Below are positions 21,776 through 34,659 of a stretch of 64,000 bases of DNA, in pieces; within the stretch, counting starts at the first letter, position 1, and each line of letters starts with the position of its first letter. This DNA comes from Victivallales bacterium (lineage in GTDB: Bacteria; Verrucomicrobiota; Lentisphaeria; Victivallales; UBA1829), in the NCBI GenBank assembly GCA_045612485.1, contig JAZKZE010000115.1, forward strand, positions 3,524-67,523, read 5' to 3'. Both the position numbers and the translations under genes were made by a program. The notes under the pieces are model-generated. The model saw only the letters and a list, made by a program, of their open reading frames with translations, ran no database searches and was not told where the DNA came from.

Positions 21776-24700
21776 ATGAAAAAAAGTTTGTATAGTTACT
21801 TTGCTCTTGCAGCAGCCTTTTTTGCGGGCTTTTCTGCTGTCGCGGCAGAAAAGGGCAATCTTGTGGCAGATCCCGCTTCTGCTGTCAAAAATACATGGAA
21901 AAAATATCCTGTTGCAGGTAAAGATTTCTGGATGCTCCTTGACCCCAGATGGCTGGAACTCAAGGGCGTTTCCCATGAAGAATTTGTACAGAAGTCCGGA
22001 ACAGGATTCGTCCAACAGACTGTCTCCGGAGAAAATGTGACAAATCTGCGTGTTCTTACCATCGGGGAAATCACCTCCTATGATGCAAGAAACAGAAGAA
22101 GAAAAGCAACCATAGAGGTCATTCCCGAAGAAAAGGATATGCTGGTGACCGATCCCCAGTACCTCAATGACGGAAGTGTCAGAAATTACTGTGTTTTTTC
22201 CGGTAATGTTCTGGATATGACAAGACGCTATGCCATTCATAAAAACACACTGAAATTCAAAAGTGATTTCGCCATTGCACGCCTTGCCATCAATCATGGT
22301 GTCGGCAAAGACAACCGTATCAGCAAACTTTTGTGCAACGGTAAAGAAGTACAGATCCCTGCTGATAAAAATACTTTTGATGTGAAGATCACTCCGGCAG
22401 CAAAGGAATTTGAACTTACTGTCTATTCCTCCCCCCTGAAATATCAGGCAAAGGAATTGAATGTGCCTTATGAAGAAAGATTGAAAAAGGCTCCCTTCTG
22501 GCTGACCAATATGTTCCGTGCCAATTACGGTAACATTTTCGGAACCGATGTCTGCAATTTCGATCAGGAAAGTTTTGCTTCTGTCAGAAAAAAATACGGG
22601 GAAAACTTTATCGGCTACTGGCTGCCGGAATGGGATCACAACTATATCCTTGCTGTATCCCGCCCCAATCTTCCCTATTACAAAACCATTCAGAACTTTA
22701 TCAAAGTACCCTGCAATAAAGAGGATTTTGTTAAAGGCGTCCTGAAATTCTGCTGGGATTCCCATAAACCGCTTTTCGGCAAAGATCTTCTGGGTATGAG
22801 CGGTCAGGTGCTTTTCATGCATCACGCCTGTGACTGGGGAAGCACCGTTTCCGGTCTGGAAATCACCCAGGAAAAAACCGAACTTGCCGGAAGGATCTCT
22901 TTTATGTTTACCAGAGGTGCTTCCAGACAGTTTGATAAACCCATGTATATTTATCAGGCATACTATGGCGGTTCCCAGTCTCCCAGCAGTACTTTGCGCG
23001 GTTACAACAGAAGAATAGACTGGGGAGTGGCTCCCTCCCTCACCATGCGTAACTTCATGGCAAGTTACTATATGGGTAACAACTATCTTGACTTTGAAGC
23101 ACAGCCCTACGGGATGGTTCTTCAGGAAAAAAATGGAAATCATACTCTTACCGGCAACGGTAAAGTCATGAAAGAATTTTATGAGTGGACTGCCTCCGAC
23201 AAAGGAAAACGCGGGGAAAGTTATACCCCCATCCTTCTCCTTGCCGACAGAAAACACGGCTATGATATGTGGTACAGAATTGCTCCCAGAGGCTGGGACA
23301 ATTTCTATAACATCTATCCTCTGACTGATGCCAATTTCTTTATGGAATATGTGATGCAGGTCATCAGCCCCCGCTATGATTACAACAAGTTTGACAACCC
23401 CAAATACAGCCCAAATCTGCACAACTCCACAGTAGGGGATATTTTTGACCTCTATCTTGCCAACCCCCTTGTAAACGGGGAAGTGCGTCTGGATCAGTTG
23501 AAAAAATATCCGGTGGTAGCCCTTGTTGATAACATCACCTATACAGAAAAACTTGCCAATACCCTGAAACAGTATGTTGCAGAGGGGGGAACTCTTCTTC
23601 TTACCACCGGGCAGACCGCTCCCTTTGAAGAAGATAAAGATTTCCTCGGCGTGACTATCGGAAAAGATACAAAGAAGGAAGACGGACTTTTTGTCAATCC
23701 TCTCACCCTTCTTCCCGGTACGGAAACTGTTATGGCAACAAGCAGAAAGACTCCCCTTGCCACAAAGAAAAAATACGGCAATGGTCATGTGATCCTGCTT
23801 GCCTCCCCCTACATGAAGAAAACTGGTGACTTGACAAAAGTGCCCCAGCAGCTTGTAAAACTTTTTGAAAAGATCCAGAGCGAACTTCTGCCGGTAAAAG
23901 TGGAAGGCGATTGCCAGTACCTTTTCAATATCATGCCTGACGGTACATGGAAAGTTATCCTTATCAATAACAGGGGTATTGTGAAACTTCCCACAGAATC
24001 CTTTGAAAAGCATTTCAAGGAATATACCGCCAAAGTCACCCTTACCGTTCCTGCCGGAGTCACCATAAAGGAATTGCGTAAAAATACCGTTCCTGTTGTG
24101 AAAAAGGGTAAAGAATTCGATCAATATACTTTCAATATCGCTCCTGCTGATATTTATGTAGTGGATATGAAAGGGATCAAATTCGGTAAGACCGTCAAAA
24201 AAGGTCCTGCAAAATTCAACAGAGTGAAGAATTATAAATTCCAGCCCTATACCCCCAAAAAGGTCAATGACGGTTATAAACCCCGTCCTGCCGCAACTCT
24301 CGCCGCCATGGGAAAAAATATGGTTGCCGCTCCTGCTGTTGTTGCCTCATGGAAAGGGGAAGGGATGAAAGAGGTCACCGGTAAAGGGTATGAATTGAAA
24401 TTCCACAATGTGGAAGTAAAAGACGGCATTGCCAGATACAATACCAAACGTTCCTGGGCTACTTTGAACGTTCAGCTCAAACATTCTCTGCCGGCAGTAA
24501 GCTATGAGCTTGTTGTCAAACCTGCTCCCATTGAACAATGGAAGAACGTTTACGGCAGACATGTGAGAGGCGGAGTTCTTTATCCCCACCGCAACCTTAT
24601 GCTGGAATATTATCACGGCAGATGGACACTTCTTCTCTTTGAAAGGCTCATCTATGACCGTGTGATGGGCCCGAAAGCCGCTGCGGAGTGGACACACCTC

Positions 24701-24958
24701 TGTGTAACATTGGAAAAAAACATTGCCAGACTGTTTGTCAATGGCAAAGAGGTGAAACGTGCCGCCGGCCCGATCAAGTCCATAAATGAATTCAGGCCAA
24801 AAACTCCTGTAAGCAAGCTCGGACTCAATCTTGGTTCTCTTGCCCATACCTGGCCCATTCCCTATTCTTTCCAGGGGGAAATCAAAGAGTTTACCATTCA
24901 TGGTAAAGCACTTTCTCCGGAAGAGGTCGCACAGAGAGCTGCGACGGTAAAGAAATAA
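21776..24958 (+). CDS. large secreted protein with a C-terminal LamG/concanavalin-like domain
   Basis: 1060 aa with a signal peptide (AAAFFAGFSAVAAE). The C-terminal ~200 aa end in the LamG-type signature FQGEIKEFTIHGKALSPEEV. The N-terminal ~800 aa are unassigned. Confidence 0.8.
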   Translation: MKKSLYSYFALAAAFFAGFSAVAAEKGNLVADPASAVKNTWKKYPVAGKDFWMLLDPRWLELKGVSHEEFVQKSGTGFVQQTVSGENVTNLRVLTIGEITSYDARNRRRKATIEVIPEEKDMLVTDPQYLNDGSVRNYCVFSGNVLDMTRRYAIHKNTLKFKSDFAIARLAINHGVGKDNRISKLLCNGKEVQIPADKNTFDVKITPAAKEFELTVYSSPLKYQAKELNVPYEERLKKAPFWLTNMFRANYGNIFGTDVCNFDQESFASVRKKYGENFIGYWLPEWDHNYILAVSRPNLPYYKTIQNFIKVPCNKEDFVKGVLKFCWDSHKPLFGKDLLGMSGQVLFMHHACDWGSTVSGLEITQEKTELAGRISFMFTRGASRQFDKPMYIYQAYYGGSQSPSSTLRGYNRRIDWGVAPSLTMRNFMASYYMGNNYLDFEAQPYGMVLQEKNGNHTLTGNGKVMKEFYEWTASDKGKRGESYTPILLLADRKHGYDMWYRIAPRGWDNFYNIYPLTDANFFMEYVMQVISPRYDYNKFDNPKYSPNLHNSTVGDIFDLYLANPLVNGEVRLDQLKKYPVVALVDNITYTEKLANTLKQYVAEGGTLLLTTGQTAPFEEDKDFLGVTIGKDTKKEDGLFVNPLTLLPGTETVMATSRKTPLATKKKYGNGHVILLASPYMKKTGDLTKVPQQLVKLFEKIQSELLPVKVEGDCQYLFNIMPDGTWKVILINNRGIVKLPTESFEKHFKEYTAKVTLTVPAGVTIKELRKNTVPVVKKGKEFDQYTFNIAPADIYVVDMKGIKFGKTVKKGPAKFNRVKNYKFQPYTPKKVNDGYKPRPAATLAAMGKNMVAAPAVVASWKGEGMKEVTGKGYELKFHNVEVKDGIARYNTKRSWATLNVQLKHSLPAVSYELVVKPAPIEQWKNVYGRHVRGGVLYPHRNLMLEYYHGRWTLLLFERLIYDRVMGPKAAAEWTHLCVTLEKNIARLFVNGKEVKRAAGPIKSINEFRPKTPVSKLGLNLGSLAHTWPIPYSFQGEIKEFTIHGKALSPEEVAQRAATVKK

Positions 24959-24981
24959 TATCCGTTTGAAATAAACTTCCG

Positions 24982-25021
24982 GGGCTGCTGCAATATTTCT
25001 TACGGCAGCCCTGTTTCTTTT
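24982..25021 (+). terminator. probable rho-independent terminator
   Basis: GGGCTGC pairs with GCAGCCC (16-nt loop), followed by TGTTTCTTTTT. Confidence 0.5.
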
Positions 25022-25103
25022 TAAATGGGAAACATCAGTAATACTTTATAAAGTCCTGATACTGTTTATGATACCACCACCGTATTTTCTTTAATCCCAT
25101 GAT

Positions 25104-25145
25104 AAAAAAGAACCATTGCCGCCCTGTTGGGAACGGCAATGGTTC
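25104..25145 (-). terminator. rho-independent terminator (minus strand)
   Basis: GAACCATTGCCG pairs with CGGCAATGGTTC (12-bp stem), followed on the minus strand by T6. Confidence 0.75.
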
Positions 25146-25166
25146 TGTATTTATATGGAAAGAAGA

Positions 25167-26396
25167 TTATTCGATCTCAAAGGTGAATTCGTTGCGTGCA
25201 TCTGTCTTCCATGCAAGATGTCTTGTGGAAGGGGAGCTGTAAAAGAGGGGGGAGAATGTGGTAGCCTTGACCGTTTTTCTGTCCGGCATGAATTCCAGCA
25301 GCCGCAACCAGCCGTCGCCGCCGTTGCCGCTGAATCCGCCGCCGATGGCCTGGGTATTGAAAACCAGCTGGGCGACCGTTTTACCGGAATCATTTTTATC
25401 TGTGGAAAAGCCCACACTTGCTTCCCAGTTATTGGTTTTGCAGACATGACCGCAAACCACAAGGCGGATGTTTTTTGCAGGTTTCACAAGTTTCTGGAAG
25501 ATGGCTTCTCCGGCATTGCCGCCTTTCTTTGATGCCGGATCTTTTTTGGAAATGGCATAATTTTCTTTCAGGATGCGTTTGCCGTTGGCATACATATAAG
25601 AGTGGGTGAGAACGATCCCGATATGATTTTCAAAACAGGGGAGATCTGCTATTTTCTTTGCCCATGCCAGATCGCTGTCTGTGGGGGCAAACTGCAAAGT
25701 GATGACCAGAAATTTCCGGTTGTCAGGATGGGGGGCGGTAAATTCATAAGCGGAATTTTCCAATGTTTTCATCCCGAAAGCATTGGAGTTGCATTCAAAA
25801 AGCTGACGCCTTGTCAGAGGATTGCGGGAGGTGGGGAAATAGGTGGAAAAATGAGTCCTCCTGTTTTCTGAACTGTGTATGCCGTAATCGTGATTGCCGG
25901 TACAGAGAATATAGGGTACTTCCCCGTCCAGGCGTTTCAGAATACGGGAAACTGCCTGCCATTGTTCATCTGCCACAAGGTCGGTTTTTCTGCCGCTTTT
26001 CAGGTAGAAATCGCGCTTGGCAACTCTTCCGGTATCATTGAAATATACAAGGTCTCCGGTAAAAAGCACCTGTTGTATTTTCATTTCATCCCTGCGGCGG
26101 ACGATCCAGGCAAGCATCATATCCAGAATACCCTGATTTTCGATCTGTTTGATATAGGTCTGGATATCCGGAACAACGACCATCGACCAGGACTGTGGAT
26201 CAGTCAGTGCCGGAGCCCCTCTCTGGGCAGCAGGAACACTTTTTGCGGCAGGTGCTGCGGGTGTTTTTGTTTCTGTTTTGGTTTGTTGTACATTTATTTC
26301 TGTTTTTCCTGCGGGAGCTTTTGTTTCTGTTTTTGCCTGGGCATAAATTGTTACTGCCGCAAGGAGAAGGACTGCGGGAAGAATGAGCTTTTTCAT
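25167..26396 (-). CDS. secreted calcineurin-like metallophosphoesterase
   Basis: Signal peptide, a KTETK-rich linker, then MPE motifs VVVPDIQ, FTGDLV, CTGNHD, VLTHS and VVCGHV. Confidence 0.85.
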   Translation of the reverse strand: MKKLILPAVLLLAAVTIYAQAKTETKAPAGKTEINVQQTKTETKTPAAPAAKSVPAAQRGAPALTDPQSWSMVVVPDIQTYIKQIENQGILDMMLAWIVRRRDEMKIQQVLFTGDLVYFNDTGRVAKRDFYLKSGRKTDLVADEQWQAVSRILKRLDGEVPYILCTGNHDYGIHSSENRRTHFSTYFPTSRNPLTRRQLFECNSNAFGMKTLENSAYEFTAPHPDNRKFLVITLQFAPTDSDLAWAKKIADLPCFENHIGIVLTHSYMYANGKRILKENYAISKKDPASKKGGNAGEAIFQKLVKPAKNIRLVVCGHVCKTNNWEASVGFSTDKNDSGKTVAQLVFNTQAIGGGFSGNGGDGWLRLLEFMPDRKTVKATTFSPLFYSSPSTRHLAWKTDARNEFTFEIE

Positions 26397-26509
26397 AAAG
26401 CAACTCCGTTTTTCTGTTTATTTTGTAATGGGACGATAAAACAATATACGGAAAAATGTACTATGGATATAAAGATTTGTCAAGCGGTAAAAGGCTTCTA
26501 TACCGGTTT

Positions 26510-28426
26510 TTACCTCTCTTTTTCCTTTAAGGCTTCTTCCGCCATCATAAGAGAAAGCAATAGATAGGAATGATCTTTTCTGGTACTGTAATGTTCCTGA
26601 AGGAGTATTTTTATTCCATTTTCATCAAAAAATCCCCTTTTGACCAGATTGCCCTGTAAAAGAGTTTTTTCTGCCGTTTCTTTCCATTCTTTCCGCAGAA
26701 ATGCTGCAACAGGTACACCGAATCCCCGTTTTTTTCTCCGGGCAAGCCCCCGGGGCATAAGGTCGGAAAAAGCATCACACAATATTCTTTTCCGTACGCC
26801 GCCTTTCTCTTTAAATGAATAGGGCAGCTTCATGGCAAAATCCACAACATCATTTTGCAGGAAAGGCGATCTCACATCCAGAAAGGCATTGGTACTTGCC
26901 TGTTCCATTTTTACCAGACAGTCATTGGCAAGATAGTTGGCAAAATCGAATTCCGAACACCATTCATTTCTTTCCCGGCTTGTTCCCTGTGTGAGAAGTC
27001 CGAAACGGTCAAAGTTTTCCAGTGTGGGAAGAAGTTGTGCTTCCTTGAGAAGCCTGCCTTCGATTCTCTTTTTGTCTTCTTCTTTTACATGGGTTATCAT
27101 GGAAAAATATCTCTCTTTTCCGCTCATACGCATGGCATGTAAAAAACGTTTTGCTCTTGCCGGAAGTCCTCTTTCGGAACTTTCCGGAAGAAGGGAAAGG
27201 AGGAGGAGGGCAAATTTATCCCGCAGGAGGGATGGGAGAAGATCGCAGCAATAAAGATAACGCATGGCAAGATAACGTTCATATCCGCCGAAAAGTTCAT
27301 CGGCACCGTCACCGCAGAAGGCAATGGAAATATTCTTTTCCTTTGCAAAGGAGCATAACAGACTGGTAGGCAGAAGAGAGGCATCGGCGTAGGGGGAGCC
27401 GTGATCTTCAGCAAGTTGGAGCAGTAGGGGCAGTGTATCTGCTCCTACCGGGGAAACAAAATGTTCCATTTTGCCGGAAGCAAGATTTTTTATATGATCG
27501 AAATTGATTGCCGCCTGTTCTCTTTCATCGTAAATGGCTTCATCAAAGCCCATGGAAAATGCTTTCAGATTCCCTTTACAAAGTTTTGCACAGATCCCGC
27601 CTATGATACAGGAATCCACTCCGCCGGAAAGGAAAATACCTTTTTCCGCTTCCTTTGGTACACAGGAAAGATGTTTTTCCACAGATTTGAACAATAATTC
27701 CCGTAAACGATGACACGCTTCAGAATAGGAAAAATTTTCTTTAACGGAAAAGTCTGCCTTCCAGTATTTTTTTGTAACGGAAAAACACCGGTCGGCAAAG
27801 GAAATCTCTGCAAAACTTCCCGAAGATAGTTTCCGTACATTCCGGTATATGGTGCCTTCCGGGACATATTGCAGGGAAAGAAAATCCCACAAAGATTGTT
27901 CTTCAAGGTTGCCGGGAAAGGAACCATGTTTTTTCAATGCTCCCATACTTCCTGCAAAAACGGTCACTTCCGGCGTACAGAAATAGAAAAGTGCCTTGCT
28001 GCCCAGTCGGTCACGGACAAGATAGAGTTTCTTCTTTTTCCTGTCAAAAAGGGCTATGGCAAAACTTCCGGAAAGTTTCTCCCACATTTTTATGCCGTAT
28101 TCATGGAAAAGACGGGCAAGAAGTTCTTCATCACTGCTGCCGGATAATGTGATACCTCTGGTTGTGAGTAATTCTGCAAGTTCTTTTTTATTCAGTAGGT
28201 AGCCGTCAAGAAGAATGGTATAGGGCAATTCTTCCGGCAGCATATTTTTTCTTCCCGGGGGAAAGAGAAAGGAGGCATGGTCGTTTTCATTTGCAGCAAT
28301 GTATGGCGGAAAGGAAGGAAATGAAGCCTTTTGCAGTAAAGAAGCCATTTCCTGCAAACAGAATTTATCTTTTTCCATTTGCCCGGCTGTAATACAACTA
28401 TGAACGATCCCGGCAAGAAAACTCAT
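26510..28426 (-). CDS. asparagine synthetase B-like PP-loop ATPase with a degenerate glutaminase domain
   Basis: 638 aa with the PP-loop FLSGGVDSC. The N-terminus is MSFLAGIV where AsnB has MCGIAG (Cys2 to Ser). The NGEIYN region reads DGYLLN. Its ATG overlaps the upstream stop (ATGA). Confidence 0.85.
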   Translation of the reverse strand: MSFLAGIVHSCITAGQMEKDKFCLQEMASLLQKASFPSFPPYIAANENDHASFLFPPGRKNMLPEELPYTILLDGYLLNKKELAELLTTRGITLSGSSDEELLARLFHEYGIKMWEKLSGSFAIALFDRKKKKLYLVRDRLGSKALFYFCTPEVTVFAGSMGALKKHGSFPGNLEEQSLWDFLSLQYVPEGTIYRNVRKLSSGSFAEISFADRCFSVTKKYWKADFSVKENFSYSEACHRLRELLFKSVEKHLSCVPKEAEKGIFLSGGVDSCIIGGICAKLCKGNLKAFSMGFDEAIYDEREQAAINFDHIKNLASGKMEHFVSPVGADTLPLLLQLAEDHGSPYADASLLPTSLLCSFAKEKNISIAFCGDGADELFGGYERYLAMRYLYCCDLLPSLLRDKFALLLLSLLPESSERGLPARAKRFLHAMRMSGKERYFSMITHVKEEDKKRIEGRLLKEAQLLPTLENFDRFGLLTQGTSRERNEWCSEFDFANYLANDCLVKMEQASTNAFLDVRSPFLQNDVVDFAMKLPYSFKEKGGVRKRILCDAFSDLMPRGLARRKKRGFGVPVAAFLRKEWKETAEKTLLQGNLVKRGFFDENGIKILLQEHYSTRKDHSYLLLSLMMAEEALKEKER

Positions 28427-29337
28427 GGTCTTTTTTCCTCCTGTGCCTTATGGGGGATATGCTTTTCCCCTGCACATTTTTTCCTCCATAAACGTACCTT
28501 TTCCTCTACAGAAAATACAAAACAATTTTTCAGAAATGTATCCAGAACGATTTTTACGGCAAGGGGGGAGGGGTGAACAAGATCTTCTTTGTAAAAACGG
28601 TAATCCCGCAAAGAATCATTGACGATCTCATAGGCGGGAAAGTAGGAAATATTTTCTTTTTCAGGCAGAAGTTCTTCAATGGCACTGCGCAATTTTGCCT
28701 TGCCTGCACTGTTTAAAAGTGGTTCGCCCGGGTAATGCCGTACCGGGGAAAGGGTAAAAACGATCTTGCCTTCCTTATTGCATTTACGGATATTTGTCAC
28801 GATCCTTTCACAGCTTTCTTTACATTCCGTAAAAGAGAGCAGTCTTCTTTCAAAGGTATCCGGCGGCATTTTGTGACAGTTTGCCGCGATTTTCCCTGTT
28901 TCCCTGATTTCATAGACTACCGCAGAGGATAAGGTGATAAAGATCCCGTCCGCTTTTTCCAGTGCCGAATGAAAATCTTCCATGATGCTGTTGGCGTTTT
29001 GCACTGCGGTTTTTCTGTCGGTACAGGAAAACTTTCCATGATGAAAGTAGGAGTGGTATTTATTTTCATGGAAGAAAAATTCTTCTTCCGTATAAAAATG
29101 ATTTTCTACGATCCTTTCCAGAGAATCCGCAATGGAAACTGGGTTATACAATATCCCGTTGGGGTTTTCCCGGATCTGCAATCCGGTACCGGCAAGAAGC
29201 AGTGTCATTTCTTCTGCAAAACAGGAACCCACGGAAACAAAGGAACATTTTTCATCCCACTTTTTATATTTCCATCTGAAGGGGACTTCCTGAAAACAGC
29301 AATGCAGCTCATCTGTAAAACAATACTCTTTTTTCAT
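28423..29337 (-). CDS. GSCFA family protein
   Basis: 304 aa with the eponymous N-terminal motif VSVGSCFAEEM. There is a 4-nt overlap with both neighbouring genes. Confidence 0.85.
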   Translation of the reverse strand: MKKEYCFTDELHCCFQEVPFRWKYKKWDEKCSFVSVGSCFAEEMTLLLAGTGLQIRENPNGILYNPVSIADSLERIVENHFYTEEEFFFHENKYHSYFHHGKFSCTDRKTAVQNANSIMEDFHSALEKADGIFITLSSAVVYEIRETGKIAANCHKMPPDTFERRLLSFTECKESCERIVTNIRKCNKEGKIVFTLSPVRHYPGEPLLNSAGKAKLRSAIEELLPEKENISYFPAYEIVNDSLRDYRFYKEDLVHPSPLAVKIVLDTFLKNCFVFSVEEKVRLWRKKCAGEKHIPHKAQEEKRP

Positions 29338-31589
29338 ACGTAAAAACCTCCTGTTTCCCGGCAGAGCCGTTCTTTCAGAAGTGTGAATCTGGGTTCTTTT
29401 ACGGTATTTCTGACCGCCATGGAAAGAGCCTTTTTGGAACCAACAAGGATCATAAGTTTCTTTGCCCTTGTCATACCTGTATAAAGAAGATTTCTCTGAA
29501 GCATCACAAAATGACTTGTGAGAACCGGCATAACGACCGCCGGAAATTCGCTCCCCTGGGATTTGTGTACGGTAATGGCATAAGCGTGGGTAAGTTCCTC
29601 TGCCTCCGGGAAAGCATAGTTGATGTTCTGGGAATCAAAGGCAACGGTAAAAGTTTTTTCATCATGCCGTATGGAAGTGATCCTGCCCATATCGCCATTG
29701 AAGACTCCCTTATCATAATTATTGGTGATCTGCATAACTTTATCCCCCAGCTTGAAAAGCCGTTCCCCGTGCCGGAAGGCAAGAGTGCTTTTATTGAGTT
29801 TTTCCTGTAAGGCGGTATTCATGGAAAGAGTTCCGCAGACCCCTTTATTCATGGGGGTGAGGATCTGTATATCGTTGACCGGATCAAAACCGAATCTTTC
29901 CGGGATCCGTTCTGTAACAAGCCGCAGTATGACATCACAGGCCTCCTCCGGTTCCTCTTTGGGGATCCAGTAAAAATCGGAAAGAACGTTTTGACCGGAA
30001 GGGGGGGATTGTGTGATACATTCCGGAATAAGTCCGGCATTGACTTCATGGGCGGCAACAATGATCCTGCTGCCTTCCCCCTGACGGAAGATCTTTGTAA
30101 GTCTTGTCACAGGGATCGAATTGGAAGAGATAAGATCATTAAGGATATTGCCCGGTCCCACACTGGGGAGCTGGTCGCAGTCCCCCACAAGAACCACAGA
30201 AGCCCCTTGGGGAATGGCACGGAAAAAAGCGGTGGCAAGAGGGAGATCCAGCATGGAAGTTTCGTCCAGAATGAAGAGATCGAAGGGAAGGGGATTTTTT
30301 CTTCCGTGTACAAATTTTCTTTCGGCGGCATTCCATTTGAGAAGGCGGTGCAGAGTATAACTTGTCATATTGGTCGTCTCACTCATTCTTTTTGCCGCCC
30401 TGCCGGTAGGGGCTGCAAGAGCAATACGCAATTTGGCAAGGGTGGCTTTGCGGACGATTTCTGCCACTACGGTAGTTTTCCCCACACCGGGGCCCCCGGT
30501 AATGATACATAACGGGGAATTTTCCACCATTTTTACGGCGGAAAGCTGTTCATCGCTGAATTTGGAACCCTGAAGAAAGGGGATACTTTTCAGACGGGTG
30601 CCCCAGTAACGGGGAAAGGAGAGCAGGGAGGAGATCAGACGGGGGAGTTCCTGTTCACAGCGGAGCATGGCGGGATCGTAGATCATTTCCCCCTGTTCTC
30701 TGCTTGGATCCCGTAGTGCTTTCCCTTCTTCCACAGCAAGACGCAGAGCTTTTGAAGCATCCTCTTCCTCTATTCCCAGAAGTTCCGCAACGGTTTTGAG
30801 AAATTCGGAAGAAGGCATACAAACGTGTCCCGCAAGGCGGATCTGCTCCAGCGTATATTTTACTCCGGCAACAAGTCTTTTCTCATCTTTTTTGCCGATC
30901 CCGGCTTTTTCTGCGATCCTGTCTGCAAGGATAAAACCTATCCCCTCCACCTGAGAAGCAAGAAGATAGGGATCTGTTTGAAGGATCTCTGCGGAACGGT
31001 CGCCGTACAGAGAATAGATTTTGGTAAAATAGGCAGGACTTATTCCCAGAGACTGCATATAAATCTGCAAGGTTCTGCGGTCTTTATTTTCATCCCAGGC
31101 TTTTTTTATGGCAGTGATCCGTTTTTTCCCCAGTCCCGGGATTTCTTTGAGGCGGCAGGAGGCATTGTCCAGAATGTGCAGAGTTTCTCTGCCGAAATGA
31201 TCCACGATAAGTTTTGCATATTTTTCCCCCACACCTTTGATGACGCCGGAGGAGAGATATTTTATGATTCCTTCCGGTGTGGAGGGCAATGTACTTTCAA
31301 AATGGGTGACTTTCAATCGTCTCCCATACTCTTTATGGACTTCCCATTTGCCTTTTACAGAAAGACTCTGTCCACTGTGGATGGAATTCAGCGGGCCGCA
31401 GATACAGTGTCTTTCCCCCTGAAGATCCCGCAAATAGAGAATGGCAAATGTGCCGTCGGCAGATTCATAAATGACTTTTTCCACATCACCCTGCAAAATG
31501 TGTTCCGTAAGAGTGCCGGATCCCTGATCCTGCTGCACTTCTCCGGAATGGAAAAGATCATCGTTTTTCTGGGGAAAAGCCTGTGTCAT
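29334..31589 (-). CDS. recD2: ATP-dependent RecD2-like SF1 DNA helicase
   Basis: 751 aa. Walker A GGPGVGKTT, ILDETSMLD, VLVGDCDQLPSVGPG, AITVHKSQGSEF, and an N-terminal OB/HhH-type region. Confidence 0.92.
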   Translation of the reverse strand: MTQAFPQKNDDLFHSGEVQQDQGSGTLTEHILQGDVEKVIYESADGTFAILYLRDLQGERHCICGPLNSIHSGQSLSVKGKWEVHKEYGRRLKVTHFESTLPSTPEGIIKYLSSGVIKGVGEKYAKLIVDHFGRETLHILDNASCRLKEIPGLGKKRITAIKKAWDENKDRRTLQIYMQSLGISPAYFTKIYSLYGDRSAEILQTDPYLLASQVEGIGFILADRIAEKAGIGKKDEKRLVAGVKYTLEQIRLAGHVCMPSSEFLKTVAELLGIEEEDASKALRLAVEEGKALRDPSREQGEMIYDPAMLRCEQELPRLISSLLSFPRYWGTRLKSIPFLQGSKFSDEQLSAVKMVENSPLCIITGGPGVGKTTVVAEIVRKATLAKLRIALAAPTGRAAKRMSETTNMTSYTLHRLLKWNAAERKFVHGRKNPLPFDLFILDETSMLDLPLATAFFRAIPQGASVVLVGDCDQLPSVGPGNILNDLISSNSIPVTRLTKIFRQGEGSRIIVAAHEVNAGLIPECITQSPPSGQNVLSDFYWIPKEEPEEACDVILRLVTERIPERFGFDPVNDIQILTPMNKGVCGTLSMNTALQEKLNKSTLAFRHGERLFKLGDKVMQITNNYDKGVFNGDMGRITSIRHDEKTFTVAFDSQNINYAFPEAEELTHAYAITVHKSQGSEFPAVVMPVLTSHFVMLQRNLLYTGMTRAKKLMILVGSKKALSMAVRNTVKEPRFTLLKERLCRETGGFYV

Positions 31590-31645
31590 AAGATAAAAAA
31601 AGAAGAACAGACCTTCTGTAAAAAGAAGATCTGTCCTGTAATGGA

Positions 31646-32767
31646 TCAGTGATGGGAGAATACCCGTTCAGGAGCGTGACGCAGTGCCACACCAAGTTCA
31701 TTGGCACGTTTTACCACATCGGCGTCTTTCAGAGAACCGGAGGGTGCCACGATGGCTTTGATCCCGGCTTTTGCGGCAGTTTCCACGGCATCGTAGAAGG
31801 GGAAGAATCCGTCACTGGACATTACTGCCCCTTCCAGAGAGTTTTCCCCGGTATATTTCTGACGGAATTTTTCAATAGCCTGTTCCACAGCACCCACGCG
31901 GTCCTGTTCACCGGTACCCACAGCAAGGGTCTGACCGTTTTTCACGATGACTACGCCATTGGAACGCACGCTGATATTGATATACCATGCGGCAAGAAGG
32001 TCTGCCATTTCCGCTTCTGTGGGAACGACGGTGGAAGTATGGGCACCGCAAGCCTTGTTTTCACCGGAGGCGGGAGGAAGATCTTCAGCGGAACGCACAT
32101 TGGTGAGAAGGGGGGCGGCAATGACGAGAGAACCGTCGCAGAGGATCTTCATGGTATTGGCGTCTCCTTCGGGATCGTCACCCACATAACGGGGGATGGA
32201 GGCAATGTCGCCGCACTGGAGGATACGGATCTGCTTGTTGAGCTTGTAGGTTTCCTGATCGTTGAAGATTGCAAGAGCTTCTTCTTCAAAATCGGGGGCT
32301 ACCACACATTCGCAGAAGGTACTCATGATCTCTTTTGCGGTTTCAGCATCCACTTTCACGTTGAAAGCGATCACGCTTCCGAAAGCGGCACGGGCATCGC
32401 AGTCTCTGGCTTTTTTGTAAACATCCACAAGACTCTCCCCTTTACGCATGACGGAAGCTCCGCTGGGGTTGACGTGTTTCATTACGGCGCAGGCGGGTTC
32501 GTCAAAATATTTCACGATATTGAGGGCTCCGGAAATATCTTCCAGATTGGTCTGGGAGAGACCGTTTTTCCCGCTTTTGAGAGTTTTCATATTGGCGATA
32601 GCCCCTTTGGAACCTTCGGGGATATAGAAAGCCGCAGGCTGGTGGGGGTTGGTACCGTAACGCAGGTCATCTGCCTTGATGAATTTTTTCCCGCCGATGA
32701 TGATCTCGGAGGCAAAATCTCCGGTATTTTTGGTAAGATACGCATTTCTGCCCAATTTTTCAGCCAT
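31646..32767 (-). CDS. purH: AICAR transformylase-domain protein (PurH lacking the IMP cyclohydrolase/MGS-like domain)
   Basis: 373 aa. LRYGTNPHQPAAFY appears only ~35 aa from the N-terminus. MKHVNPSGASV is present, and the C-terminal end ...ERVFSHH matches the PurH C-terminus. Confidence 0.85.
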   Translation of the reverse strand: MAEKLGRNAYLTKNTGDFASEIIIGGKKFIKADDLRYGTNPHQPAAFYIPEGSKGAIANMKTLKSGKNGLSQTNLEDISGALNIVKYFDEPACAVMKHVNPSGASVMRKGESLVDVYKKARDCDARAAFGSVIAFNVKVDAETAKEIMSTFCECVVAPDFEEEALAIFNDQETYKLNKQIRILQCGDIASIPRYVGDDPEGDANTMKILCDGSLVIAAPLLTNVRSAEDLPPASGENKACGAHTSTVVPTEAEMADLLAAWYINISVRSNGVVIVKNGQTLAVGTGEQDRVGAVEQAIEKFRQKYTGENSLEGAVMSSDGFFPFYDAVETAAKAGIKAIVAPSGSLKDADVVKRANELGVALRHAPERVFSHH

Positions 32768-32960
32768 TTTTACGACTCCTTTTTTGATTTTATGCTTTTT
32801 TATGTTAAATTATGTTTTCTGAAGAAACAGAACTTCACCATACAATTTACATTCCCTGTGGCATATTGGCAAATTGTTTGAGTGAAAAAGATGAAAAAAA
32901 CTGTGAAAAATGCCCTGCTTCATAATAAAACAAGGGCTTTTGAGAAAGGTGAGGCATATT

Positions 32961-33608
32961 TTGAAAGGATATTTTATCACATTTGAAGGCGCGGAAGGCT
33001 GTGGAAAAAGTACCCAGATCCGTTTGCTGGGGGAGGCTTTGGAAAAAGCCGGAAGAGAGGTGACAGTATCCCGTTCCCCGGGAGGAACTGTTGTGGCGGA
33101 AAAGATCCGCAGTATCCTTAAAGAGGTGACGCCCGGGGAAGATCTGGAACCGGAAACCGAATTATTACTTTTCGGAGCCTGTCACAGTCAGATGACCGCA
33201 AATCTCATCAAACCTGTTCTGGATAAAGGAGGCATCCTTTTAAGCGACCGGTTCTATGATTCCACCATTGCTTATCAGGGATATGCCAGAAATCTGGGCG
33301 TGGAGAGTGTGAAATGGATCAATCATTATGCCTGCCGGAACCTGAAGCCGGATCTTACCATCCTTCTGGATATGGATCCGGAAGAGGGAATAAAACGTGC
33401 GGCAGAACGGGCTGGGACAAAAGAAAATCTTGCCAATGACCGGTTCGATTCGGAAAAACTTTCCTTCCATCATGCCGTACGCAATGCCTTTCTCCGCCTT
33501 GCGGAAGAAGAACCGGAACGGTTTGCTGTTATACCGGCAAATGCCTCAATCGAAGAAGTTCATAACCGTATCCTGGAGGCGGTCCATGTACACCTGGGCA
33601 TACTTTGA
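32961..33608 (+). CDS. tmk: thymidylate kinase
   Basis: P-loop ITFEGAEGCGKSTQ and the DRFYDSTIAYQG motif. The likely start is TTG 32961, 6 nt after AAGGTGAGG; the ORF also opens at ATG 32910, which has no SD. Confidence 0.9.
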   Translation: MKGYFITFEGAEGCGKSTQIRLLGEALEKAGREVTVSRSPGGTVVAEKIRSILKEVTPGEDLEPETELLLFGACHSQMTANLIKPVLDKGGILLSDRFYDSTIAYQGYARNLGVESVKWINHYACRNLKPDLTILLDMDPEEGIKRAAERAGTKENLANDRFDSEKLSFHHAVRNAFLRLAEEEPERFAVIPANASIEEVHNRILEAVHVHLGIL

Positions 33609-34659
33609 AGAACGTTTTCCCATGGTGATCCACGCTCTGAAAAGGGCGGCGGAAGCGGGGACTCTCGCTCATGCGTATCTGATTGTCAGTACCAATCCTG
33701 ATTACAGAACGCAATTTCCTCTTCTCCTCTCCTGTCTTGCGGTCTGCGGGAACCGTAATGAGGATGGTTCCCCCTGCTGTAAATGTGAAAACTGTACAAA
33801 GATCCTTAATGGATTATATCCGGATTTCCATACCCTTGCCCCTACCTCCAAAGCAAGGGAGATCGTGATCGGCAAGGATACGGATGATATTGATACTTTA
33901 CGGTGGTTTGAAGCCCAGTTCCATTTAAGTGCCTCCACTTCCTGCGGCTGGAAATTAGGGGTGATACAGGAAGCCGATACTATGAATGAATCCGCCCAGA
34001 ATGCTTTCCTTAAAACATTGGAAGAGCCCCCGGGAAAATGTTTCTTCCTGCTGACGACAGCAAGGGCTTCCCGGCTTCTGCCTACCATCCGTTCCCGCTG
34101 TCAGATCCTGTATCTTACAGATAACTGCTGTGAATATGATTTTCCCCGCTGCGGGGATGTGCCGGGACTTCTTGCCAAACTTGTGGAACCTGTGGAAAAA
34201 GAAAAAAGTCTGATGGCAGCCTCTGATACTGCCAATGCCCTTATTGCCATAGCTTCTGCCTTGTATCAGGCGGCGGAAAAAGAGGCGGAAGAGGAGTGGA
34301 ACCCCCGTCTGGAACAGGCAAAAGAACTGGAAAATGCCGGATTGAAACTTCTGGAAAAACGTCTGGAAGGGGCGACCGGAAGCAAATACAGGAAAAACCG
34401 GGAGCAGTTTATGAGTCTTATCCATTCCTGGTGTGCAGTCCTTGCTCTGAAGGCAACCGGGATCCCGCCGGAGATCCTGCCGGATAAAACTCTTGCGGAA
34501 AGTATGGGGGATCTCCCGGAAAAGATCGGTGAAAAACGTTCTTTTAAAATACTGGATCATGCCGGTGAACTGCTTGCCGGATTGCGGACAAATGTAAATG
34601 ATGAACTTGCATTGCGGGTATTCTGCCTGAATGCGGCAGTAAAGACGAGGGATTTGTGA
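33586..34659 (+). CDS. holB: DNA polymerase III delta' subunit
   Basis: ATG 33586 lies 7 nt after GGAGG and overlaps the tmk 3' end by 23 nt. Motifs: LAHAYLI, the Cys cluster CCKCENC, and EADTMNESAQNAFLKTLEEPP. Confidence 0.85.
   Translation: MYTWAYFEERFPMVIHALKRAAEAGTLAHAYLIVSTNPDYRTQFPLLLSCLAVCGNRNEDGSPCCKCENCTKILNGLYPDFHTLAPTSKAREIVIGKDTDDIDTLRWFEAQFHLSASTSCGWKLGVIQEADTMNESAQNAFLKTLEEPPGKCFFLLTTARASRLLPTIRSRCQILYLTDNCCEYDFPRCGDVPGLLAKLVEPVEKEKSLMAASDTANALIAIASALYQAAEKEAEEEWNPRLEQAKELENAGLKLLEKRLEGATGSKYRKNREQFMSLIHSWCAVLALKATGIPPEILPDKTLAESMGDLPEKIGEKRSFKILDHAGELLAGLRTNVNDELALRVFCLNAAVKTRDL

Follow-up and report, generated by a model that had tools for sequence, protein, structure and literature searches.

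An asparagine synthetase-like protein with a degenerate glutamine site in an inherited recD2-GSCFA gene order of Lentisphaeria

AsnB-type enzymes use ammonia besides glutamine (PMC3854871), and aspartate is not always their substrate. Long AsnB homologs of Firmicutes and Actinobacteria amidate the meso-diaminopimelic acid (mDAP) of peptidoglycan, not aspartate (PMC8554201, PMC5485061), and the AsnB proteins of Bacillus subtilis and Listeria monocytogenes and LtsA of Corynebacterium glutamicum, which are annotated as asparagine synthases, act on this other carboxylate (PMC8554201). The NAD synthetases, an amidating PP-loop family with both glutamine-using and ammonia-only forms, provide a precedent for either nitrogen source in one family (PMC3376133). 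Here we describe an AsnB-like protein encoded in a 64,000-nucleotide stretch of DNA from a Victivallales bacterium (contig JAZKZE010000115.1, positions 3,524 to 67,523), referred to below as the window. Its gene (26510..28426) is the last of three minus-strand genes, after those for a RecD2 helicase and a GSCFA-family protein, and encodes a two-domain protein of 638 aa in which a degenerate class II glutaminase domain precedes an intact PP-loop synthetase domain. Coordinates are window positions, and all features lie on the minus strand unless stated otherwise.

A sequence-only reading of this DNA had claimed that the AsnB homolog lost its glutaminase active site, and alignment to E. coli AsnB bore this out. 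The N-terminus reads MSFLAGIV (28403..28426), with Ser2 at the place of the N-terminal nucleophile (Ntn) Cys. The sequence DGYLLN (residues 74-79, 28190..28207) stands at the place of NGEI(F/Y)N, and a disordered, unconstrained segment (residues 34-60, 28247..28327) at that of the RGPD...HRRLSIID...GxQP glutamine-binding elements; the protein has no HRRL-type Arg block. Relative to E. coli AsnB, Cys1 is replaced by Ser, Arg49 by Asp, Asn74 by Asp and Glu76 by Tyr, while Asp98 is retained. As the sequence-only reading had also noted, no upstream start restores an MCG N-terminus: an in-frame TAA lies 8 codons 5' of the gene (28450-28448), with no start codon between. The other two reading frames of the gene contain no hidden glutaminase motifs. 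Fold and profile (GATase_7, 80 bits against a cutoff of 25, residues 58-165) thus place the N-terminal domain among the class II glutamine amidotransferases, but it has neither Cys1 nor, apart from Asp98, the glutamine-binding and oxyanion set. Glutamine hydrolysis has probably been lost.

The synthetase domain, by comparison, is intact, as had been claimed from the sequence FLSGGVDSC (residues 265-273). The PF00733 profile scored 202 bits (cutoff 21), and the PP-loop SGGVDS (residues 267-272, 27611..27628) is invariant in all 38 sequences of our alignment A2 and in 85 canonical homologs. The sequence GDGADE (residues 372-377, 27296..27313) aligns with GEGSDE of E. coli AsnB, which contains Glu348, and Lys566 (26729..26731) aligns with Lys449; by this alignment D373 and K566 match E. 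coli Glu348 and Lys449, and both are invariant in the family. Profile, SGGxDS and the equivalents of the catalytic acid and Lys therefore all assign the domain to the Asn_synthase PP-loop family. Relative to E. coli AsnB there is an insertion of approximately 75-110 residues (about residues 386-497, 26936..27271), located between GGYxxY and D...K, in which R424, R427 and Y440 are invariant and E418 and R419 nearly so. This insertion is common to the canonical Lentisphaeria orthologs. An AlphaFold2 model of the whole protein had a predicted local distance difference test score (pLDDT) of 89.2 and a predicted template modelling score of 0.90, with pLDDT below 50 solely at residues 34-60; the rest of the glutaminase domain (residues 67-200) was modelled with high confidence. 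The top fold matches in the PDB were TsnB9, E. coli AsnB, beta-lactam synthetase (BLS), human ASNS and carbapenam synthetase (CarA). The protein scored 238.3 bits with TIGR01536, the model for glutamine-hydrolysing asparagine synthase, below its cutoff of 267.1, whereas canonical orthologs scored 430-478. With TIGR03108, the model for XrtA/PEP-CTERM amidotransferases, it scored 321, also below the cutoff (817), and no exopolysaccharide genes were found among its window neighbours, which are a purH-like gene, RecD2, GSCFA and a phosphoesterase gene.

The nearest homologs of the AsnB-like protein come from metagenome-assembled genomes of Lentisphaeria and Victivallales. Nine clusters (P0001-P0009) with 52-100% identity start with MS(F/R/Y)(L/I/F)(A/G)G and are without the HRRL and NGEIYN blocks, and even at 52% identity the clade members keep a reading frame of full length. 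The next tier, at approximately 40-45% identity, is canonical, with MCGIAG, HRRLSIID and NGEI(F/Y)N. The clade was found in ENA, Logan and NCBI data only; a scan of JGI metagenomes with the AsnB-like protein gave no match. P0005, from a 3-kb contig, resembled a clade member but took an odd place in the tree, and it was left out of the analysis as a chimera. Over residues 201-400 it matches the window protein at 94% and P0079 at 43%, and its last 240 residues are nearer P0079 (56-66%) than the window protein (21-37%), which is probably an artefact of assembly and possibly the outcome of recombination.

Gene order links this clade to glutamine-dependent enzymes. The order purH-like, RecD2, GSCFA, AsnB-like, divergent from tmk and holB, was found in the loci of the Cys-less clade (L001, L002/L003 and L005), and the identical order was found in four other Lentisphaeria lineages (L091, L092/93, L094 and L098), where the AsnB is canonical and carries MCGIAG, H(R/T)RLSIID and NGE(I/F)(F/Y)N. 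Since the same position in the block holds a canonical AsnB in these lineages, the window protein is the ortholog, by position and phylogeny, of Cys-containing, glutamine-dependent amidotransferases. In neighbour-joining trees of the synthetase domain with 200 bootstrap replicates, the window clade was monophyletic in 100% of replicates, the Cys-less P0084 was its sister in 99%, and the clade joined the canonical clade of the RecD2-GSCFA context in 71.5%.

The loss of Cys1 is not confined to the window clade. No Cys was aligned with Cys1 in 33 of the 120 nearest homologs, 4 of them N-terminally truncated sequences that do not show the state. Among the 118 nearest homologs, the bootstrapped trees required a minimum of 6-9 changes between Cys and non-Cys (median 8). 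Ser occupies position 2 in 10 of 10 members of the window clade, encoded by AGT or AGC, one step from TGY, and other Cys-less lineages carry Asp, Asn or Gly at position 1. Some homologs among P0053, P0065, P0070, P0089, P0094 and P0058 have Cys1 changed to Ser or Gly and Asn74 to Asp, with Arg49, Glu76 and Asp98 retained, and P0083 retains Cys1 with Asp74 already present; such forms are possible intermediate states of glutaminase loss. AsnB genes also occur in a second context, with AIRS, TsaE and Rce1-like genes on one side and TrxB-like and YgjP-like genes on the other. This context (L006 8001-9866, L009 8001-9860 and L095 8001-9902) holds the canonical P0032 of Victivallis vadensis as well as the Cys-less P0075 (MDTF...) and P0115 (MSML...). 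The Cys status of AsnB is thus independent of gene context.

We measured constraint by segment-wise protein conservation, comparing mean pairwise identity in the Cys-less clade with that in the canonical sister clade. Residues 8-66 were 29% identical in the Cys-less clade and 55% in the sister clade. Elsewhere the two clades were similar, with 61% and 65% at residues 67-200, 63% and 67% at residues 201-400, 59% and 57% at residues 401-500, and 68% in both at residues 501-638. Of the columns near-invariant in 85 canonical homologs, the clade kept 86% of 85 in the C-terminal domain and 55% of 47 in the N-terminal domain. The positions kept in the C-terminal domain include SGGxDS, D300/E301, D348/S350, GDGADE, K506, R519, K539, K546 and K566. 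At equal RecD2 divergence (80-83%), the Cys-less AsnB proteins of L001 and L002 were 68% identical and the canonical ones of L092 and L094 were 67% identical. Because decay is local to residues 8-66, with conservation elsewhere and a confident structure model, the gene is under purifying selection as a two-domain protein, in which the adenylating site is intact and the glutamine site alone is relaxed.

We lean towards the explanation that the AsnB-like protein carries out the ancestral ATP-dependent amidation with free ammonia as the donor. The intact PP-loop domain would adenylate the same carboxylate as the canonical orthologs, most likely aspartate, giving asparagine, or alternatively a carboxylate in peptidoglycan or elsewhere in the envelope, by analogy with the AsnB and LtsA enzymes that amidate mDAP. 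Free ammonia, and no longer ammonia released from glutamine, would then attack the acyl-AMP, and what remains of the N-terminal domain would be retained to partner the synthetase site structurally. The GSCFA and RecD2 genes would be neighbours by descent, with no shared chemistry required. C1A and C1S mutants of E. coli AsnB retain ammonia-dependent synthesis. The gut-associated names of a few related records point weakly to an ammonia-rich habitat (gut or rumen). Orthology, together with the 86% retention in the C-terminal domain, favours the same reaction with another nitrogen source over a new substrate.

Several observations weigh against this explanation. That asparagine is the product is an assumption, because the whole family has a large insertion in the substrate-binding region and scores higher on TIGR03108 than on TIGR01536. 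Some canonical-invariant positions of the synthetase domain are altered in the clade, namely DVP before the PP-loop, M512, D524 (to Q/H), D508 (to E) and E517 (to D). In addition, the window AsnB-like protein is 53-54% identical to its counterparts in L001 and L002, where RecD2 is 80-82% identical, which makes it the fastest-evolving gene of the block in this comparison. The altered positions and this divergence are compatible with some change of function. Ser1 and Asp74 recur together in separate lineages, which could reflect a residual or altered activity of the N-terminal domain.

The most serious alternative, although unlikely, is that the protein has been neofunctionalised to form amides or lactams, its adenylating domain joining a new carboxylate substrate to an amine other than ammonia. 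The sequence-only reading had proposed an ATP-dependent amide former of this kind by analogy with BLS, CarA and the lasso-peptide cyclases. Its observations on the protein itself stand: the Cys-less state and the intact PP-loop are both present, and the altered invariant residues and the faster window lineage (AsnB 53% where RecD2 is 80%) would suit a new reaction, as would the nearest solved fold, the AsnB-like TsnB9, whose product is not asparagine. The analogy itself was not supported. Scores with the lasso cyclase (NF033535, 117 vs 525) and macrolactam (NF033561, 38 vs 300) models were far below cutoff, and the neighbouring genes seen included none for a precursor peptide, a protease or secondary metabolism. 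Position and phylogeny make the protein orthologous to canonical amidotransferases, 86% of the synthetase positions are kept, and canonical forms also carry the insertion and its Arg cluster. The 6-9 independent losses in a housekeeping-type family are also easier to understand as loss of a dispensable half-reaction.

Quite unlikely, in our view, is a related possibility, that Ser1/Asp74 and the changed synthetase residues mark a new activity that goes beyond simple ammonia dependence. It could take one of two forms: the old glutamine pocket may capture ammonium or another amine, or an envelope or nucleotide-linked carboxylate may be amidated or ligated together with the co-translated, cytoplasmic GSCFA protein. 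If a GSCFA-linked activity of this kind were true, it would be a first clue to what the uncharacterised GSCFA family does.

That GSCFA and AsnB form a functional pair, the SGNH hydrolase acting on the same molecule (e.g., a peptidoglycan precursor) or supplying the nitrogen donor in trans in place of the lost glutaminase, seems very unlikely. The GSCFA family is part of the SGNH clan, and neither a function nor a structure is known for it (PMC9487903). The 304-aa window protein (28423..29337; PF08885, 252 bits) belongs to this family by profile, motif and Ser/Asp/His set. Its positions G37-S38-C39-F40, N153-C154-H155 and D252/H255 are invariant in alignment A1 of 18 homologs; by comparison with SGNH block I, the GSCF motif (residues 37-40, 29218..29229) would contain the putative nucleophile Ser38, and D252-x-x-H255 (28573..28584) would be the putative acid/base pair of block V. 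The AlphaFold2 model had a pLDDT of 87 and matched only remote SGNH esterases in the PDB. No signal-peptide-like N-terminus was seen on reading the sequence, to which no predictor was applied. The idea of a pair draws on the close packing or overlap of the genes in at least 7 Lentisphaeria lineages, on the amidation of peptidoglycan mDAP by long AsnB homologs, and on the Bacteroidales, where GSCFA lies directly upstream, on the same strand, of an 839-aa Mur-ligase/alanine-racemase fusion in 16 of 76 loci (L016, L019, L023, L030, L041, L050, L051, L069-L071, L074, L075, L078, L080, L088 and L090), the fusion sitting at about 10.8 kb. This association is a weak hint that GSCFA is linked to peptidoglycan-precursor metabolism, and the 16 loci, all from a single order, do not count as independent. 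Elsewhere GSCFA adjoins HMGL-like, MiaE or TrmH-like genes, so that its neighbours differ by phylum with no consistent partner.

The distribution of the pair argues against a shared function. In Lentisphaeria, GSCFA is paired equally with canonical, glutaminase-competent AsnB, and thus GSCFA is not a glutaminase replacement. In one 5.9-Mb genome (L097) a SOUL-domain gene, and not AsnB, comes after the purH-like gene, RecD2 and GSCFA, and in Victivallis vadensis and two Cys-less lineages AsnB lies elsewhere, in the second context. Among 80 GSCFA loci outside Lentisphaeria, mostly from Bacteroidota, none had an AsnB-like gene within 10 kb, and one had a weak helicase match; a general GSCFA-AsnB gene pair is ruled out by this count. 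We also scanned JGI metagenomes by DNA pattern for the Lentisphaeria-type GSCFA motif TLSPVRHYPG, which yielded 38 GSCFA loci, 29 of them informative. AsnB was downstream of GSCFA in 3 of the 29, all three with MCGIAG, and RecD2 was directly upstream in 15 (L101, L105, L110, L112, L113, L115, L118-L120, L123, L126, L129, L130, L134 and L137). Thus, RecD2-GSCFA is the more widely conserved pair, and AsnB is a lineage-specific third gene. Adjacency of the three genes, which the sequence-only reading could not explain by any known pathway, is indeed conserved in other Lentisphaeria, and no special pathway is needed to account for it, given the same order with canonical AsnB, the genome without AsnB and the second context. 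The recD2/GSCFA/asnB-like set is best explained as a compact operon in an inherited Lentisphaeria gene order and not as a dedicated pathway.

It is highly improbable that the gene encodes a catalytically dead pseudoenzyme with a structural or regulatory role, or that it is decaying and being lost. Its rapid evolution relative to L001 and L002, its score below the TIGR01536 cutoff and the name 'hypothetical protein' given by NCBI to two clade members would fit such a fate. However, the reading frame is full-length throughout the clade, the synthetase domain is as conserved as in canonical relatives, no nucleotide-binding or catalytic motif is missing, and both domains are confidently modelled. 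Scarcely credible is a working Ntn nucleophile at Ser1, with which the N-terminal domain would still hydrolyse glutamine or another amide: the constancy of Ser in the clade, its occurrence in several independent Cys-less lineages and the 72% conservation of MSxxAG(I/V) are set against the replacement of Arg49, Asn74 and Glu76, the unconstrained and disordered residues 34-60, the Asp, Asn or Gly of other Cys-less lineages, the reported lack of glutaminase activity in E. coli AsnB C1S, and the fact that a single mutational step separates Ser from Cys and that Ser still permits removal of the initiator Met.

The ORF table and direct reading both gave three minus-strand open reading frames in the order RecD2, GSCFA, AsnB-like, with ATGA overlaps at the two junctions reported before, between the RecD2 stop and the GSCFA start (29334..29337, read cgtATGAaaa) and between the GSCFA stop and the AsnB-like start (28423..28426, read gaccATGAgtt). 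The 4-nt ATGA is the commonest overlap among same-strand bacterial genes, and the overlap by itself is therefore unremarkable. At the second junction the last A of the GSCFA TGA stop also opens the Ser2 codon AGT, and this overlap was made possible by the change from TGY to AGT (28421-28426); canonical orthologs, which begin ATGTGC, cannot form ATGA and have instead 1-nt overlaps, a 32-nt overlap or short gaps. A Shine-Dalgarno-like AGGAGG was read 10 nt 5' of the AsnB-like ATG (28437..28442).

The first gene of the operon encodes a 751-aa superfamily 1B DNA helicase (29334..31589) with a TIGR01448 score of 802 bits (cutoff 500) and the full RecD2 domain set (OB_YrrC, HHH_RecD2, AAA_19/30, SH3_13 and UvrD_C_2), 80-82% identical to its positional orthologs in L001 and L002. 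A reading of the block as a defence system was rejected, because PADLOC gave no match for the AsnB-like or GSCFA proteins and RecD2 has a full TIGR01448 score in a conserved housekeeping gene order; RecD2 matched generic helicase models only, at 212 bits at most. A terminator-like hairpin with a 14-bp stem (31604..31637), found by consensus scan only, lies between RecD2 and the purH-like gene and may be the 5' boundary of the operon. The purH-like gene (31646..32767; PF01808, 202 bits) encodes a 373-aa protein with 5-aminoimidazole-4-carboxamide ribonucleotide (AICAR) transformylase only, without the inosine monophosphate (IMP) cyclohydrolase domain, and is a conserved upstream neighbour, syntenic in every Lentisphaeria locus examined. 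Its protein is 96-100% identical between the window and L001 (5671-6792) or L002 (88-1209), compared with 80-82% for RecD2, and identity to L002 at third codon positions is 87% for the purH-like gene and 59% for RecD2. This excess suggests either very strong codon and sequence constraint or recent recombination of that one gene.

On the 3' side of the AsnB-like gene lies a calcineurin-like phosphoesterase gene (25167..26396; PF00149), whose product has a hydrophobic, signal-peptide-like N-terminus. Its position is occupied by MFS_1, TilS, M20 peptidase or AraC genes in relatives, and it is not a conserved member of the block. The consensus scan found no terminator-like site in the gap between the two genes and a strong hairpin 3' of the phosphoesterase gene. 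A search of region 24000-34000 against Rfam for riboswitches and leader RNAs gave no match at E <= 0.1. Just past the operon region, a 1060-aa reading frame on the plus strand (21776-24958) also has a hydrophobic, signal-peptide-like N-terminus.

The window gene therefore encodes an amidotransferase of the AsnB type whose glutaminase domain has been inactivated without recruitment of the enzyme to secondary metabolism, and its neighbours follow an inherited order. What stands out most is that the glutaminase site has been lost repeatedly, and locally, in a single phylum. If our explanation is correct, this would be a natural case of a bifunctional amidotransferase shedding its glutaminase half-reaction at least 6-9 times, with the dead domain kept as a scaffold, and the clade would show which parts of the N-terminal domain are still needed after catalysis is lost. 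An enzyme of gut or rumen Lentisphaeria that relies on free ammonia would then be relevant to models of nitrogen metabolism. The locus also illustrates that tight translational coupling alone is no sign of a shared pathway. For annotation, the Cys-less clade members P0006 and P0033 are named 'hypothetical protein' in NCBI records, whereas their canonical relatives are named 'asparagine synthase (glutamine-hydrolyzing)'. We regard this as a modest finding in enzyme evolution, which implies no new pathway or system.

Among known systems, canonical AsnB (E. coli AsnB, 1ct9; TIGR01536; P0027, P0030 and P0032) is like the window protein in its Ntn N-terminal domain and PP-loop domain, in SGGxDS and GDGADE and in the conserved lysines, and its Lentisphaeria representatives, at 40-45% identity, occupy the same place behind RecD2-GSCFA. 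The window protein differs from it in Ser1, in the replaced Arg49, Asn74 and Glu76, in the disorder of residues 34-60 and in a TIGR01536 score of 238 against 267. The mDAP-amidating AsnB and LtsA enzymes, compared by description only, resemble the window protein in length (~630 aa) and may do so in an extra segment in the substrate region. LtsA is reported to be glutamine-dependent (PMC7920481), in probable contrast to the window protein, and the mDAP enzymes, which presumably retain Cys1, are described as missing the D and R that bind Asp in true asparagine synthetases, whereas the window protein keeps D502 and K506; these two residues are invariant near E. coli D384/R387, in a register that is ambiguous by one residue.

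BLS, CarA and the lasso cyclases are parallel in architecture, being Cys-less with an inert N-terminal domain and an active adenylating domain (Foldseek probability 1.0). Yet BLS (1jgt) is remote from the window protein (phmmer E = 1e-7, TM-score about 0.5), which, unlike these enzymes, lies in a housekeeping context without a biosynthetic cluster and descends recently from a canonical amidotransferase within one phylum. The hydroxyamidotransferase TsnB9 (PDB 7ylz), a long AsnB-like enzyme whose carboxylate substrate is not aspartate, is the best match among solved structures (E = 7e-20, TM-score 0.68-0.74), but it shares 16% identity in the Foldseek alignment, is described as a working amidotransferase and has an unrelated context. 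NadE, finally, belongs to a different family, in which the glutaminase domain is either present or wholly absent, whereas in the window protein the domain is retained but inactivated.

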